Shown here one piece after another: positions 3,129 through 10,356 of a stretch of DNA of 10,356 nucleotides. A program made the translations under genes and the position numbers. The notes below the pieces were generated by a model. The model made no database searches. It was not told the DNA's origin and worked only from the letters and a program-made list of their open reading frames with translations. Location: UHGV virus genome UHGV-0145483. The stretch is one strand, 5' to 3'. The number at the start of each line of letters is the position of its first letter. Position 1 is the first letter of the stretch. Source of the stretch: a virus.

Positions 3129-3204
3129 GGCCCTTTAGCTCAGTGGTGAGAGCGAGCGACTCATAATCGCCAGGTCGCTGGTTCAAATCCAGCAAGGGCC
3201 ACCA
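3129..3204 (+). tRNA. ileZ: tRNA with CAU anticodon, Ile2 (lysidine)-like
   Basis: Manual cloverleaf: acceptor GGCCCTT/AAGGGCC, D-arm TAGCTCAGTGG...GAGC, anticodon loop CTCATAA, T-loop GGTTCAAATCC, encoded CCA at 3202-3204. Close to E. coli ileX as recalled. Confidence 0.85.
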
Positions 3205-3211
3205 TCACATA

Positions 3212-3288
3212 CCGCCATTAGCTCATCAGGATAGAGCGCCAGCCTTCGAAGCTGGTTGCGCGGGGTTCGAGTCCTCGATGGCGGTCCA
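3212..3288 (+). tRNA. argN: tRNA-Arg, anticodon UCG (reads CGA)
   Basis: Manual fold: acceptor CCGCCAT/ATGGCGG (C1:G72), D-stem GCTC/GAGC, anticodon stem CCAGC/GCTGG with loop CTTCGAA, T-loop TTCGAGT, encoded CCA at 3286-3288. Gene name follows Stx-phage convention and is not verified. Confidence 0.75.
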
Positions 3289-3301
3289 TTATCGGTATTC
3301 T

Positions 3302-3378
3302 GCGTTGTTAGCTCAGCCGGACAGAGCAATTGCCTTCTAAGCAATCGGTCACTGGTTCGACTCCAGTACAACGCGCCA
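3302..3378 (+). tRNA. argO: tRNA-Arg, anticodon UCU (reads AGA/AGG)
   Basis: Manual fold: acceptor GCGTTGT/ACAACGC, D-stem GCTC/GAGC, anticodon stem ATTGC/GCAAT with loop CTTCTAA, T-loop TTCGACT, encoded CCA at 3376-3378. Confidence 0.8.
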
Positions 3379-3443
3379 CACTTATTTTTTTCTGGCTTGC
3401 TTCGGCGGGCCTTTTAGTTGCTGAAAAAGAAAACACCAGGTGG

Positions 3444-3476
3444 TTAGCAGGGTATCCGTTACCCTGCTAAATTTTT
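3444..3476 (+). terminator. Intrinsic terminator downstream of the tRNA cluster
   Basis: Perfect 11-bp stem TTAGCAGGGTA/TACCCTGCTAA (3444-3454 with 3460-3470), 5-nt loop, then TTTTT 3472-3476. Confidence 0.55.
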
Positions 3477-3691
3477 AAATACCTCACAATTCAGCAAGTT
3501 GATGATTGTCTGGCTGTCAGGGATTTTGTTAAAAAAATCCTGCATGGTGAATCCCCCTGAGCGGAGGGGCGACTGGTGACGGTATAATCTCTGATTATCA
3601 AAACGAGAATGACGCGGGTTTAGTGGCACCGGGCTGAACTCACCGGGAGGCACCCGGCACCATGTTCATGGTGATACAGAAATGCGGCTTC

Positions 3692-3716
3692 AGCCCCTCT
3701 CCGGAGGGGCTTTCTT
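3692..3716 (+). terminator. Intrinsic terminator, + strand
   Basis: 8-bp stem AGCCCCTC/GAGGGGCT with TCCG loop, followed by TTCTT. Confidence 0.45.
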
Positions 3717-3722
3717 ATGGAC

Positions 3723-3750
3723 AAAAAAGCCCGCGCTGGGAGACGCGGGC
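3723..3750 (-). terminator. Intrinsic terminator, - strand, back-to-back with the + strand one
   Basis: 7-bp stem GCCCGCG/CGCGGGC (3729-3735 with 3744-3750), 8-nt loop; A6 at 3723-3728 on + gives a U-run after the hairpin on the - strand. Confidence 0.4.
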
Positions 3751-3944
3751 GGCAAGGAATAAACAATAAAACGTGAAGTAATATTTCAGCTGGCGAATAA
3801 TACCCCATAGTAATCACTCTGCGCAACTGCGCGGCCTTTTTCGTATTGCGGGCTGTAGTCTCCCTTCTGCCATTGTCCTGTAACTTCCGGACTTCAGCCC
3901 GTTCCCTCATCTGACTCACAACATTATCCCGACCGGGAGGATTC

Positions 3945-5927
3945 ATGACATTTAAACACTACGATGTGGTCAGGGCGGCGTCGCCGTCAGACCTTGCGGA
4001 GCGACTGACACAAAAACTGAAGGAGGGGTGGCAGCCATTTGGCAGCCCTGTCGCCATCACGCCTTATACCCTGATGCAGGCCATTGCGGCGGAAGGTGAT
4101 GTCACCACACCGGTGGTGGTGCAACCGTCGGGTGATGGTGGCGCTGTTATCAGCACCACCAGCGAACCGGAATATTACTTTGTCATTGCGCTGGCCGGGC
4201 AGTCCAACTCGATGTCTTTTGGCGAGGGGCTGCCGCTGCCGGAGACATATGACCGTCCGGACCCGCGTATTAAACAGCTGGCGCGTCGCAGTACGGTGAC
4301 GCCGGGTGGTGCCGCCTGTAAATATAACGACATCATTCCGGCAGACCACTGTCTGCATGATGTGCAGGATATGAGTAACCTGAATCATCCTCATGCAGAC
4401 CTGAGTAAGGGACAGTACGGTTGTGTGGGGCATGCTCTGCATGTTGCCAAAAAGCTGCTGCCGTTTATGCCTGCGAATGCGGGTATCCTTCTTGTTCCAT
4501 GTGGCCGTGGCGATTCGGGATTTACTGCGGGGGCCGAGGGGGCGTTTAACGAAGCGTCGGGAGCGACCGCAGGCTCGTCCCTGTGGGGGGCGGATAAACC
4601 GCTGTATCATGACCTGGTCAGCAGAACCCGTGCGGCCCTGAAGAAAAATCCGAAGAACGTGCTGTTATCAGTGATCTGGATGCAGGGAGAAAAAGATGTC
4701 AGTTCGGGGAGACATGCAGAACACAATGCGCTTTTCCTTGCCATGGTAAATCAGTTCCGTACGGAACTGGCAGATGTGGCAGAGCAGTGTACTGGCGGGA
4801 CAACGGCCAGCGTCCCGTGGATTTGCGGTGATACCACGTACTACTGGAAGGAAAGGTATGCAGCGCCGTATGAGGCGGTTTACGGTGGGTATAAAGGCAA
4901 AGCTGCGCAGAATATTCACTTTGTGCCGTTGATGACGGATGAGCATGGTGCGAATGTGCCGACAAACGAGCCGTCAGAAGATCCGGACATTATCACGGCG
5001 GGATACTATGGTGCCGCGTCACGCAGTAATGGTAACTGGACGACAGCCGATCGTAAAACGCACTTCAGCTCCTGGGCGCGAAGAGGCATTGTTTCAGATC
5101 GGCTGGCAGGAGAGATACTGGTGCGAGCCGGGCGTTTGCTGCCGTTCCTGAGCGGGCAGTCTGCACCGCTGGCGACCACGCCAGCCTCCACGGGGGATGC
5201 ACAGTCTGGCTCTGCGGGTCAGACGCAACAGCAGGGTGCAGGTACTTCTGCAGGCGGTCATACTGAAGCCGTAACAAGAATGGTGGCCGGATATGATGCG
5301 AACAGTGGCAGTGGTGTATGGACAGAGCAGCAGTGGAATGCGTCCGGTGGTAAAGGCACTGTGACGGATGACAGTGGCAGGAAGGCGCTGCGACTGGAAA
5401 AACAGCCGGGTAAACTGACCTCCTGGAAGATGTTCCGTACTGTTGCGGTGGAGGAGGCAAAAAATCTTCTCAGCAAGGGGGGTGAAATTGCCGTACGGTT
5501 CAAAATTCCGGATGGAAGCGAACTGGTGAACGGACAGTTTGTCTTTGGTCTCTACTGGCCGGTGTCGCAGTGGGCGTCAGGCGCGGCAGCAAACAGTATG
5601 CTGGCATCATTCTTCCTTCAGACGGATGCATCAAATCTGAATCTTATGCACCACAAGGGCACGTCGAATGCACAACTGGGTACATTTGGTGCGTTTGACC
5701 ATAACTGGCATACGGTTGTTTTCCGCTTTGCGGGAAATAACAGCGAAAGAGTCGTTCCGGTGATTGATGGTACAGAGCAGACGGCGTTTGACCTTGTGAT
5801 GTGGACAAATGATGGCTTTACAGCAGATACGCTGACGCTGACAGATATCACGGGGGCAAAAGCGACGTATCCGGTACTGCTTGATACGGTCACAGTCAAA
5901 GTTAACGAAAGCCGGGCATCATCATAA
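3945..5927 (+). CDS. nanS-p: Prophage sialate O-acetylesterase NanS-p family (DUF1737 N-domain, SGNH esterase, C-terminal beta-rich domain)
   Basis: 660 aa; SD gggagg 4 nt before the ATG. N-terminal MTFKHYDVVRA...EGWQPFGSPV matches the DUF1737-type domain of phage NanS-p proteins; SGNH block I FVIALAGQSNSMSFGEG carries the catalytic Ser; a Ser/Gly/Thr/Gln-rich linker (about aa 400-440) precedes the C-terminal domain. Position matches the gene that follows stx in Stx phages. Confidence 0.85.
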   Translation: MTFKHYDVVRAASPSDLAERLTQKLKEGWQPFGSPVAITPYTLMQAIAAEGDVTTPVVVQPSGDGGAVISTTSEPEYYFVIALAGQSNSMSFGEGLPLPETYDRPDPRIKQLARRSTVTPGGAACKYNDIIPADHCLHDVQDMSNLNHPHADLSKGQYGCVGHALHVAKKLLPFMPANAGILLVPCGRGDSGFTAGAEGAFNEASGATAGSSLWGADKPLYHDLVSRTRAALKKNPKNVLLSVIWMQGEKDVSSGRHAEHNALFLAMVNQFRTELADVAEQCTGGTTASVPWICGDTTYYWKERYAAPYEAVYGGYKGKAAQNIHFVPLMTDEHGANVPTNEPSEDPDIITAGYYGAASRSNGNWTTADRKTHFSSWARRGIVSDRLAGEILVRAGRLLPFLSGQSAPLATTPASTGDAQSGSAGQTQQQGAGTSAGGHTEAVTRMVAGYDANSGSGVWTEQQWNASGGKGTVTDDSGRKALRLEKQPGKLTSWKMFRTVAVEEAKNLLSKGGEIAVRFKIPDGSELVNGQFVFGLYWPVSQWASGAAANSMLASFFLQTDASNLNLMHHKGTSNAQLGTFGAFDHNWHTVVFRFAGNNSERVVPVIDGTEQTAFDLVMWTNDGFTADTLTLTDITGAKATYPVLLDTVTVKVNESRASS

Positions 5928-9050: not shown

Positions 9051-9416
9051 ATGGCTCAGCTTCGTACACTCCAGAGCAGAATCAAAACACTGAATACCCG
9101 ACGGGTGAATATTCTGAAGGGGGAGCAGCGTCGTGTCAGTGGCAGTGCACGTGTTTCCCTCAAGCGTCATATCTGGCTGAGGGACGCCGGGCAGTGCTGT
9201 ATCTGTGGTCGTGTGGTTGACCTCTGTGACAGTGAACTCGATCACCGAATTGCACTTCAGTTCGGTGGTGGTAATGAGGAGACGAATCTCTGGACGCTCT
9301 GTACCGAATGCCATCGACAAAAGTCTGCTCGTGAAGCGGCGGGTGGTATGCCGGACCCGACGCTGCCGGAGGTGTCCGGAGGTAGTGGCAGAGCGGACGA
9401 CATCATCGGACTGTAA
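9051..9416 (+). CDS. HNH endonuclease (phage packaging-associated)
   Basis: 121 aa; motifs CCICGR...DLCDSELDHRIALQFGG...NLWTLCTECHRQK give two Cys pairs plus HN...H; sits directly upstream of the terminase genes as in HK97-like packaging modules. Confidence 0.8.
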   Translation: MAQLRTLQSRIKTLNTRRVNILKGEQRRVSGSARVSLKRHIWLRDAGQCCICGRVVDLCDSELDHRIALQFGGGNEETNLWTLCTECHRQKSAREAAGGMPDPTLPEVSGGSGRADDIIGL

Positions 9417-9424
9417 CCCGACCC

Positions 9425-9433
9425 GGGGGGGGG
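9425..9433. repeat. G9 homopolymer tract
   Basis: Nine consecutive G at 9425-9433, 9 nt after the HNH stop. Confidence 0.9.
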
Positions 9434-9504
9434 ATCATCCGGCGTAAAAAACGATCGCTTTGGACACCGCGCCCCCTCTCACGCAGAGAAAAAATTCCCG
9501 TTTC

Positions 9505-9640
9505 AGGGCAGTTAACATGTTAACTGGCTGCCCGGGCATTTTTGCGGTTTTTATCTTTATTATTCAGTTTGTTGTGCGGAAAAAATGTTAACTGGCTTTT
9601 TCAGCAAATGTTAACCAGGCAGCAGTTAACATTTGCGGCA
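9505..9640. repeat. Cluster of GTTAAC-centred palindromes, putative cos / terminase recognition region
   Basis: Perfect 18-bp palindrome CAGTTAACATGTTAACTG (9509-9526); ATGTTAACTGGC again at 9585-9596; perfect 11-bp inverted repeat CAAATGTTAAC / GTTAACATTTG (9605-9615 and 9625-9635) with a 9-nt spacer; TTTGCGG recurs at 9541-9547 and 9633-9639. Confidence 0.5.
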
Positions 9641-9706
9641 TGAGACGCCGGGAAAAATGGGCTGAACCATACCCGGCTGAGTGCGTTCTGGACCCGGGAG
9701 GAGGCT

Positions 9707-10270
9707 GTGCTGACAACACAAAAACGAAAATTTGCGCTGGCGCTCATGTCCGGGAAAAACAAAACAGCGTCAGCCATTGCCGCCGGTTATTCGGCGAAGA
9801 CCGCCAGGGTTAAAGGCTCACAGCTGGCAAAAGATCCGGAGGTGCTCGCGTTTATAGCCCGTAAACAGTGCGAAACGGTGGAGGTGGATGAGGTTCCTGT
9901 TTACCGGCAGAAAAAATCAGAGCAGGAGGATAAACCCCGTCGCCGTGAGGCGGCTGCAATACCACAGCCGGACGAAAACAATCCGGAGATGCCACCGTCC
10001 GCGGTGATGTCTCCTGGTATTGAATATATGGAGGATGGTCTTCCCGATCCGGTGAAAGCCATGGGGCGGATCCTGGTGGAAAACCTCTGCATTGATCCGA
10101 AACTGGCACTGGATGCGGCCTGGCGTCTGGCGCAGTTCACGCACCATAAAAAAGGGGATACCGGGAAAAAATCGGCAAAAGGTGATGCCGCGAAAAAAGC
10201 GGCTAACCGTTTTGCGGTGCCACCGCCACCCCGACTGGTGGTGAATAACGATAATGAGGGCAACGGATGA
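9707..10270 (+). CDS. Terminase small subunit
   Basis: 187 aa from GTG 9707 (SD gggaggagg; alternative ATG 9746); N-terminal KRKFALALMSGKNKTASAIAAGYSAKTARVKGSQLAKDPEV is the HTH signature of small terminase subunits; stop overlaps the next start (ATGA). Confidence 0.7.
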   Translation: MLTTQKRKFALALMSGKNKTASAIAAGYSAKTARVKGSQLAKDPEVLAFIARKQCETVEVDEVPVYRQKKSEQEDKPRRREAAAIPQPDENNPEMPPSAVMSPGIEYMEDGLPDPVKAMGRILVENLCIDPKLALDAAWRLAQFTHHKKGDTGKKSAKGDAAKKAANRFAVPPPPRLVVNNDNEGNG

Positions 10271-10356
10271 TACCTGTATGGAGCACAGCCTGCCCGGACT
10301 GGGCAGAGCGCCTGAAAAAGGGGCTGTCGATTATTCCGGATCCGATTTATCCGGAC
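10267..10356 (+). CDS. Likely terminase large subunit, N-terminal 30 codons (truncated by window end)
   Basis: ATG 10267 overlaps the small-subunit stop; frame open to the window end (MIPVWSTACPDWAERLKKGLSIIPDPIYPD). Assignment is by position only. Confidence 0.45.
   Translation, partial: MIPVWSTACPDWAERLKKGLSIIPDPIYPD

Follow-up and report, generated by a model that had tools for sequence, protein, structure and literature searches.

We analysed a stretch of 10,356 nucleotides of the virus genome UHGV-0145483 (hereafter the window), and in it the 290-bp gap at 9417-9706, which extends from the stop codon of an HNH endonuclease gene (9414-9416) to the GTG start codon of the small terminase gene terS at 9707. 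We read this interval as the cohesive-end site (cos) of a lambdoid prophage that would package its DNA with an HK97-type set of HNH protein, small terminase (TerS) and large terminase (TerL), and we give this reading, with its three functional zones, a probability of roughly 0.7. Taken separately, homology makes it highly probable that the cos is located within the interval, and the assignment of the ATGTTAAC repeats right of the cut as small terminase sites is favoured to a lesser degree. An earlier note on this DNA had described the region as non-coding, which it is. The elements of the interval are the following, signed positions being counted from the top-strand nick.

9425 to 9433, plus strand: G9 run, a conserved left cos element; 44 nt separate its right edge from the top-strand nick
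9434 to 9467, plus strand: left arm of cos (ATCATCC ... CGATCG ... GGACAC), conserved
9468 to 9477, plus strand: predicted 10-nt 3′ cohesive end CGCGCCCCCT, from homology to the mapped ends of relatives
Between 9477 and 9478 on the top strand and between 9467 and 9468 on the bottom strand: nicks, predicted from homology
9478 to 9500, plus strand: sequence flanking the cut on its right, CTCACGCAGAGAAAAAATTCCCG, in which an A6 tract covers +12 to +17; all lineages examined conserve it
9509 to 9526, no strand assigned: site 1, CAGTTAACATGTTAACTG, a perfect palindrome of 18 bp whose half-sites are GTTAACAT (+34) and ATGTTAAC (+40)
9527 to 9582, no strand assigned: T-rich spacer between site 1 and sites 2 to 4, with T tracts from 9539, 9548, 9556 and 9568
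9583 to 9597, plus strand: site 2, AAATGTTAACTGGCT, which has its core at +108 and repeats the right half of site 1 in direct orientation
9604 to 9615 and 9625 to 9636, no strand assigned: sites 3 and 4, the inverted repeat GCAAATGTTAAC-N9-GTTAACATTTGC, 12 bp and perfect, cores at +131 and +148

The cut was assigned to CGCGCCCCCT at 9468-9477 because the mapped end of the Stx1 phage Lys8385Vzw, the ends of its sequence record and an adapter junction in a virome contig coincide there. According to Zhang et al. 2021 (PMC7946995), PhageTerm classed Lys8385Vzw as a cos phage with 3′ cohesive ends, its genome finishing in the cos sequence CGCCCCCCCT. Its DNA is 99% identical to window 9478-9740 and its overhang carries one substitution. 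The GenBank record begins with CTCACGCAGAG, the homologue of window 9478, and finishes with ...GGACACCGCCCCCCCT, the homologue of window 9477. At the start of an IMG/VR virome contig of 42,956 bp (L126/L167), an Illumina adapter is fused directly to CTCATTCGTAG (CTCATTCG); this junction marks the homologous left end in a Salmonella-type relative and supports the cut independently. Because a search of IMG/VR for the right-end junction (GGACAC followed by adapter) returned none, it is the PhageTerm report that places the bottom-strand nick. The adapter-bearing contig was not among the loci listed in the left-arm scan. Positions 1-32 of its public entry, IMGVR_UViG_3300015186_000014, are untrimmed adapter, a contamination that makes a handy end marker.

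Among the relatives, CGCGCCCCCT was the commonest overhang (63), followed by CGCCCCCCGT (9) and CGCCCCCCCT (8). The predicted cut lies within a C-rich tract, outside the palindromes and the G run. The earlier note had proposed a cleavage region here, and homology to mapped ends does put the cut inside 9417-9706; it falls at 9468-9477, in the C-rich tract that had not been flagged. The mapping of fixed ends had been named as a check, and through relatives it places both the 3′ cos end of Lys8385Vzw and the adapter junction at the homologous position within the interval. The Pseudomonas relative vB_Pae_CF53a has a partial record that is uninformative on ends. A literature search with the overhang sequences gave no other phage report among the matches listed, and the papers on lambdoid Chi sites, SfIV and phi330 contained nothing about the present cos.

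Conservation to the left of the cut was evaluated in 89 distinct versions of the site (from IMG/VR, GenBank phages and genome assemblies) anchored on the inferred nick. In 87 of them the distance from the right edge of the G run to the nick is 43-46 nt, mainly 44 or 45; the two that deviate do so as an artefact, through another short G run. The G run is also kept in L134, L157, L129 and L137 despite unrelated sequence between it and the cut. Its length varies from 6 to 12 among close relatives (G12 in phage 2851, G7 in Lys8385Vzw, G8 in FSL SP-016, G9 in the window) and falls to 5 where an insertion sequence (IS) has truncated it. By itself a G9 run is unremarkable, a 9-mer G or C run being present in 21 of 200 shuffles; we take the run as a real element because it is conserved in relatives, and not because of chance statistics. 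The left arm at 9434-9467 is about 80% identical to that of the Salmonella phage FSL SP-016, and GGACACCG is unchanged throughout a six-lineage alignment. The earlier note had recorded the G9 tract, which is present, and had suspected it of being slippage-prone, which the lengths of 5-12 in relatives bear out. The drift in length is slippage, to which homopolymer sequencing error may add part of the spread; it shifts just the left boundary of a non-coding cos element, so no gene is switched. Phase variation of a gene by the G run was considered and rejected, the run being located past the HNH stop codon and ahead of any open reading frame (ORF).

Two further observations concern the left side. 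In the PPompW prophage L003 (LC567822.1, 1546-3010, the homologue of window position ~9429), ISEc20 of the IS110 family adjoins a G run cut to G5. This prophage lacks everything from the tRNA genes to the G run, including the lysis genes and the HNH gene, and is probably unable to self-package. AT-rich repeats resembling Fur boxes (AAATGATTATCATTT, GATTCTCATT) stand directly left of the G run in L125, L128, L131, L137, L144, L275 and others, whose hosts are Salmonella, Klebsiella and other Enterobacteriaceae; the window has no comparable repeats.

To the right of the cut, ATGTTAAC occurs in five exact copies in the 10.4-kb window, all of them within 9511-9632, against 0.27 expected, and at least five copies were found in none of 200 shuffles. 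The half-sites span +34 to +155, between the cut and terS. GTTAAC itself occurs nine times in the window for 2.06 expected. The perfect 18-bp palindrome that the earlier note had reported exists at 9509-9526, with a different centre: it is built around CATG, flanked by two GTTAAC hexamers, and not on GTTAAC. The reported inverted repeat is also real and its 9-nt spacer right, its arms measuring 12 bp instead of 11, and the extra half-site is found at 9585-9592. This half-site lies inside a 16-nt direct repeat (9514-9529 versus 9582-9597, 94% identical). Copies of ATGTTAAC are identical across 54 distinct versions. In the spacer, T-richness and length are retained in L269 and L265 while the sequence has diverged. 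Within 9417-9706 no terminator-like site was called and no Rfam match was found, and the folding energy of the interval is no lower than that of shuffles (z = -1.5). A promoter-like match on the minus strand at 9614-9585 was discounted, as it consists of the repeat motif itself.

The position of site 1 can be followed in relatives with a much shorter gap between the HNH gene and terS, namely FSL SP-016 and 80 IMG/VR relatives of its TerS. The gap is 106 nt in FSL SP-016, terS beginning just 39 nt right of the cut in these compact phages, and it aligns with window 9422-9524. Both share the G run, ATCATCC, CGATCG, GGACACCG and the overhang, and then CTCA..AGAAAAAAT.CCC followed by (G/A)TAAAC-ATGTTAAC. 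The ATG of ATGTTAAC is the terS start in the compact relatives, with the protein starting MLTAQKRK as compared with VLTTQKRK in the window, and because of this we place site 1 on the ancestral terS start; ATG 9517 is that ancestral start codon. Over its first 60 residues the window TerS is about 75% identical to that of FSL SP-016, the middle of the protein having diverged. Site 1 stands at +34/+40 from the nick in every relative, and most of the wider family has site 1 only, overlapping the terS start codon. The Escherichia coli Stx-phage lineage has an extra ~190 bp (window 9525-9706) which carries sites 2 to 4 and a new ribosome-binding site and start. Site 1 did not disappear once released from coding but turned into a perfect palindrome, 18 bp long in the window, 22 bp long in L269 and 16 bp long in L265.

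Loci of the FSL SP-016 type carry a second GTAAACAT at -34 from the nick (L002, 3023-3030, is an example), oriented like the copy at +34, so that compact relatives have direct repeats on both sides of the cut; the left copy in the window, at 9444-9451, has decayed to GTAAAAAA. A 24-aa hydrophobic ORF, MLTGCPGIFAVFIFIIQFVVRKKC, runs over 9517-9591 from the ancestral terS ATG to a TAA within site 2.

The assignment of the array to TerS recognition was made mainly because the repeats change in step with the TerS recognition helix while the nick core stays constant. Intermediate TerS proteins and their genomic contexts were compared in a handful of lineages. The same five ATGTTAAC sites are found in L263, whose TerS is 83% identical overall with the N-terminal domain of the window, and in L267, whose recognition helix carries one conservative change (V35I). 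L269 (TerS 65% identical, KTARVKGS as in the window) retains GTTAAC, and the flanks of its sites 1 and 2 have changed together to CCACC (GGTGGTTAACATGTTAACCACC, AAATGTTAACCACC). In L265/L266, with a TerS 78% identical and the helix KSARCKGS, the four-site layout and spacing are kept and all five half-sites read ATGTTTAY (TATAAACATGTTTATA, AAATGTTTATACCC, AAATGTTTAC-N9-GTAAACATTT); the flanks of sites 1 and 2 in L265 have co-changed to TACCC. L272 (TerS 68% identical, KSARCKGS) has the ATGTTTAY motif in its visible copies. The inverted arrangement of sites 3 and 4 is present with each lineage's own motif in L265/L266, L272 and L269. Phages of the compact FSL type, with the helix KSARSKGS, carry (G/A)TAAACAT at +34 and in most cases a second time at -34; at +34 the compact Serratia relative L274, with KTARSKGS, carries ATTAACAT. 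Two E. coli elements (L270 and L273; TerS 46-47% identical, KTARVKGW) have direct and inverted AAAAGTTACAC (AAGTTACAC) repeats instead.

Put together, TerS proteins with KTAR(V/I)KGS go with [GA]TTAAC sites (window, L263, L267, L269, Serratia L274), and those with KSAR(C/S)KGS go with [GA]TAAAC sites (L265/L266 in all five, L272 in the visible copies, FSL-type phages at +34 and -34). The change of motif tracks the helix substitutions T32/S32 and S38/W38. Constant across the lineages are the G run, GGACACCG, the overhang and the CTCA..AGAAAA box. Terminase recognition just upstream of terS, as the earlier note had suggested, is supported by the position of the array, like that of lambda cosB, and by this co-variation, which falls short of proof of binding.

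The two E. coli TerS relatives with 46-47% identity, P0064 and P0055, are located outside prophages. P0064 belongs to an island of ~8.5 kb between yejM and narP/ccm (L277, GCA_012987925.1 contig, 2446-10944) with an integrase, an AAA_25 replication-type protein, terS, a faint capsid-like gene and no TerL. P0055 (L273/L276) also lies at the narP/ccm locus, adjoining an AlpA gene, with no TerL or integrase in the contig stretch viewed. Both elements carry the same G run and GGACACCGC...|CTCAT cos core (L270, 770-870) together with their own AAAAGTTACAC repeats. They resemble phage satellites, which would use TerL and HNH protein borrowed from the present phage family.

Several points weigh against the interpretation of the interval as a cos with a TerS-binding array. 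The ends are known from relatives and not from the present prophage, which may be defective, and the PhageTerm result for Lys8385Vzw comes from one study whose printed coordinates contain a typo. Conservation of ATGTTAAC in the compact relatives is partly due to its being the start, second and third codons of terS. Among close relatives 9510-9706 as a whole barely varies, so that invariance of the sites there is non-discriminating. The co-variation comes from few lineages, uncorrected for phylogeny or recombination, and terminase binding to ATGTTAAC is putative. No match to the IHF consensus WATCAANNNNTTR was found in 9417-9706 at up to one mismatch. Periodicity of the T tracts gave peaks at 8-8.5 and 10 bp with a shuffle control that is biased in that it destroys runs, and helical phasing of the tracts is not demonstrated by this test. 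Finally, the conserved A-tract box could be the true TerS site, with the repeats just accessory.

This last possibility, that the box AGAAAAAATTCCC at 9487-9499 (+10 to +22) is the real TerS site and the ATGTTAAC array a set of low-affinity or other-factor sites, has a modest but appreciable chance of being right. The minimal TerS site of HK97 is a single 15-bp element at +15 to +29 made of an A-tract and G21, so that the position of the box matches it (PMC11331095). The box is conserved in all lineages, even where the right-hand repeats differ, and in the compact phages 39 nt between the cut and terS suffice. However, the TerS of the window is a Terminase_2 protein with an SF6-like helix-turn-helix whose kinship with HK97 gp1 is not established, and a box that stays constant while the TerS helix changes would suit a contact with TerL or HNH better than one with TerS. 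It is the repeats that co-vary with TerS and not the box. The box may also serve as a second contact of the terminase, in addition to the array. Improbable in our view is the proposal that the repeats are non-functional debris of an ancestral terS start duplicated at the ~190-bp insertion and kept by the youth of the lineage. The current start GTGCTGACA is indeed homologous to the ancestral start in ATGTTAAC at 9517, and there is little variation anywhere in 9510-9706 among close relatives. This proposal has to face three diverged long-gap lineages (window, L269, L265/L272) that retain the four-site layout despite divergence of the spacer, copies that all bear the lineage-specific motif with lineage-specific flanks at sites 1 and 2, and a site 1 that turned into a perfect palindrome in each lineage once it was non-coding.

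Marginally less probable still is a role of the palindromes in RNA or transcription, as hairpins of the late transcript (for termination, attenuation or terS translation) or as operators of a regulator. The 12-bp stem with its 9-nt loop (9604-9636) is the sole helix of the centroid fold, and GCCCGGGC followed by a T run comes directly after site 1. Such a role sits poorly with the absence of terminator-like sites and Rfam matches in the interval and with its fold z-score, all given above. Moreover, the half-site at 9585 is unpaired, the motif occurs in both orientations as DNA sites would, and the lineage changes keep motif identity in all copies, beyond mere base pairing. The 24-aa peptide as the selected feature we consider very unlikely, and this reading was rejected. 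Its frame begins at the ancestral terS ATG and has a 24-aa counterpart in L269, and close relatives differ in it by seven substitutions, four of them at third codon positions. That excess is insignificant (binomial estimate, p about 0.17), the frame encodes just 14 aa in L265, and the ribosome-binding GGAGGG of the compact relatives has decayed to CAGGGC. Its length is set by the 68-nt spacing of the sites, since the stop is the TAA inside site 2, and its hydrophobicity by the T-rich spacer, so that it is a by-product of both.

Under our preferred interpretation, a cos with a TerS-binding array, the three zones would work as follows. In the first, to judge from the ends of relatives, the staggered nicks would leave the 10-nt 3′ end CGCGCCCCCT. 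In the second, the left arm, the G run with its fixed right edge and drifting length would, by position, be the first conserved cos element reached by the motor finishing a genome; we infer for it a role as a contact or termination signal for the motor arriving at the genome end, at a position approximately that of lambda cosQ. In the third, the A-tract box is followed by the five half-sites with the T-rich spacer between them. Position and co-variation suggest that the half-sites are bound by the N-terminal helix-turn-helix domains of a TerS oligomer, which may anchor TerL and HNH at the cut and direct packaging rightward into terS, like lambda cosB.

One of the closest known systems is that of HK97 (gp1, gp2, gp74), in which the overhang is 10 nt and 3′, the HNH protein gp74 stimulates cleavage and TerS has its site immediately to the right of the cut (PMC11331095). 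As in HK97, the HNH gene and terS are the nearest genes on the two sides of cos, the cohesive end, here by homology to relatives, is a 3′ overhang of 10 nt, TerL is homologous (6z6d, E=3.2e-9) and an A-tract is conserved next to the cut on its right, at the place bound by TerS in HK97 (PMC11331095). Unlike in HK97, TerS belongs to Terminase_2, the cos DNA is dissimilar, and there is a multi-site repeat array, where HK97 has one 15-bp site, as well as a G run ending 44 nt before the cut. In the features compared (an upstream HNH gene, a TerL distantly homologous to gp2, and fixed 10-nt 3′ ends in relatives) the element agrees with the HK97-type, HNH-assisted 3′-cos class, its TerS family standing outside the comparison with gp1.

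The cos of phage lambda consists of cosQ, cosN and cosB, with R3, I1, R2 and R1. Between lambda and phage 21 the core of the nick site is shared, while the cosB repeats and the helix-turn-helix of the terminase (Nu1) change together. The present element resembles this layout, with a left element ~25-45 bp from the nick, a nick site, and repeats in both orientations over ~120 bp before the small terminase gene; it also resembles the lambda and phage 21 pair in its constant nick core and in the joint change of repeats and TerS helix. The overhang, in contrast, is 3′ and 10 nt here and 5′ and 12 nt in lambda, the terminase families are unrelated, a T-rich spacer stands where lambda has an IHF consensus between sites, and an HNH partner is present. 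It is because overhang type and terminase differ that the element falls outside the lambda cos family, and a cosQ-like role of the G run is an analogy only. In SPP1 and SF6, several short repeated boxes (pacL, pacR) flank the cleavage site. The SPP1/SF6 protein G1P shares with the window TerS the Terminase_2 family, the N-terminal helix-turn-helix and short repeated boxes by the cleavage site, but these phages use headful (pac) packaging with permuted ends and no HNH partner, whereas the family of the window has fixed cohesive ends. The cos of Lys8385Vzw is the same element. The available part of its description gives the 10-nt cohesive end only, and no mention of the G run, the repeats or the TerS co-variation was found in that part (PMC7946995).

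The genes and signals that adjoin the interval are listed below.

9051 to 9416, plus strand: HNH endonuclease gene, 121 aa, with no further gene before cos
9696 to 9704, plus strand: ribosome-binding sequence of terS, GGGAGGAGG, ahead of GTG 9707
9707 to 10270, plus strand: small terminase gene terS, 187 aa, GTG start
10267 to 10356, plus strand: first part of the large terminase gene terL, which ends at the window edge

The HNH gene product matches Pfam HNH PF01844 at 30.3 bits (cut-off 21.4) and PHROG 589, HNH endonuclease (E=1.6e-44), and its gene is placed directly upstream of cos and terS in relatives as well. Residues 2-57 of TerS match Pfam Terminase_2 PF03592 with 36.0 bits for a gathering cut-off of 26.1, and the protein matches PHROG 641, terminase small subunit (E=1.8e-68). 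Its residues 10-53 resemble the DNA-binding domain of the SF6 small terminase (4zc3, 2cmp), with residues 30-41 aligned to the third helix of that domain; this is a weak match (E 0.19-0.36) that is backed by the Pfam assignment. A scan of species-representative genomes with the window TerS gave zero confirmed relatives. The ATGA overlap of terS and terL is as in phage 2851, whose full-length TerL is the product of the gene starting at window 10267 and has as its sole match among PDB sequences the distant HK97 large terminase 6z6d (E=3.2e-9, residues 85-534).

The gene order of the window is DNA methylase, three tRNA genes, nanS-like esterase, lysozyme, Rz, HNH, terS and terL. It represents the late region of an E. 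coli prophage that is lambdoid and belongs to the Stx1a/Stx2c/BP-4795/2851 group, and it is 94-99% identical to Stx1a, Stx2a and Stx2c converting phages, BP-4795, 2851, YYZ-2008 and 1717. At 3129-3945 the tRNA genes (Met, Arg, Arg) follow the methylase gene, and ~570 bp without a long ORF precede the nanS-like esterase. In related converting phages this slot holds stx. No stx-sized ORF was found in the window between the tRNA genes and the esterase, and the prophage looks like an stx-negative relative of the converting phages. The 290-bp interval is present in 1277 of 5426 complete E. coli genomes, at up to seven places per genome, and carries no annotation there.

The cohesive end of a near-identical phage was already known (PMC7946995), and the element is a conventional cos site, so that knowledge is refined and not overturned; we came across no account of the G-run rule, of the array of repeats or of its specificity variants. 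The module is present in Stx1a, Stx2a and Stx2c phages of enterohaemorrhagic E. coli (EHEC), in which the site is unannotated. Knowledge of the cut site helps to set the correct genome ends for the Stx-phage group, and the cos elements help to judge which prophages are competent for packaging, PPompW prophages without HNH and most of the G run being an example. They also help to predict when prophages and satellite-like islands resident in one cell, with a common core and another terS and other repeats in the islands, would be cross-packaged. The natural specificity variants offer material for how a small terminase helix-turn-helix reads its DNA site. We tentatively suggest that the cos is modular, with a constant core that TerL and HNH would read, made of the G run and the 10-nt 3′ cut site, and a swappable array of TerS sites whose specificity may be reset by one or two helix residues (T32/S32 for GTTAAC versus GTTTAC, W38 for AAGTTACAC). 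The constant core is common to phages of Escherichia, Salmonella, Klebsiella and Serratia and to integrase-bearing satellite-like islands. If this doubtful scheme holds, it would amount to a simple packaging-recognition code, which would decide which of up to seven co-resident copies or satellites each terminase packages in EHEC and other E. coli.

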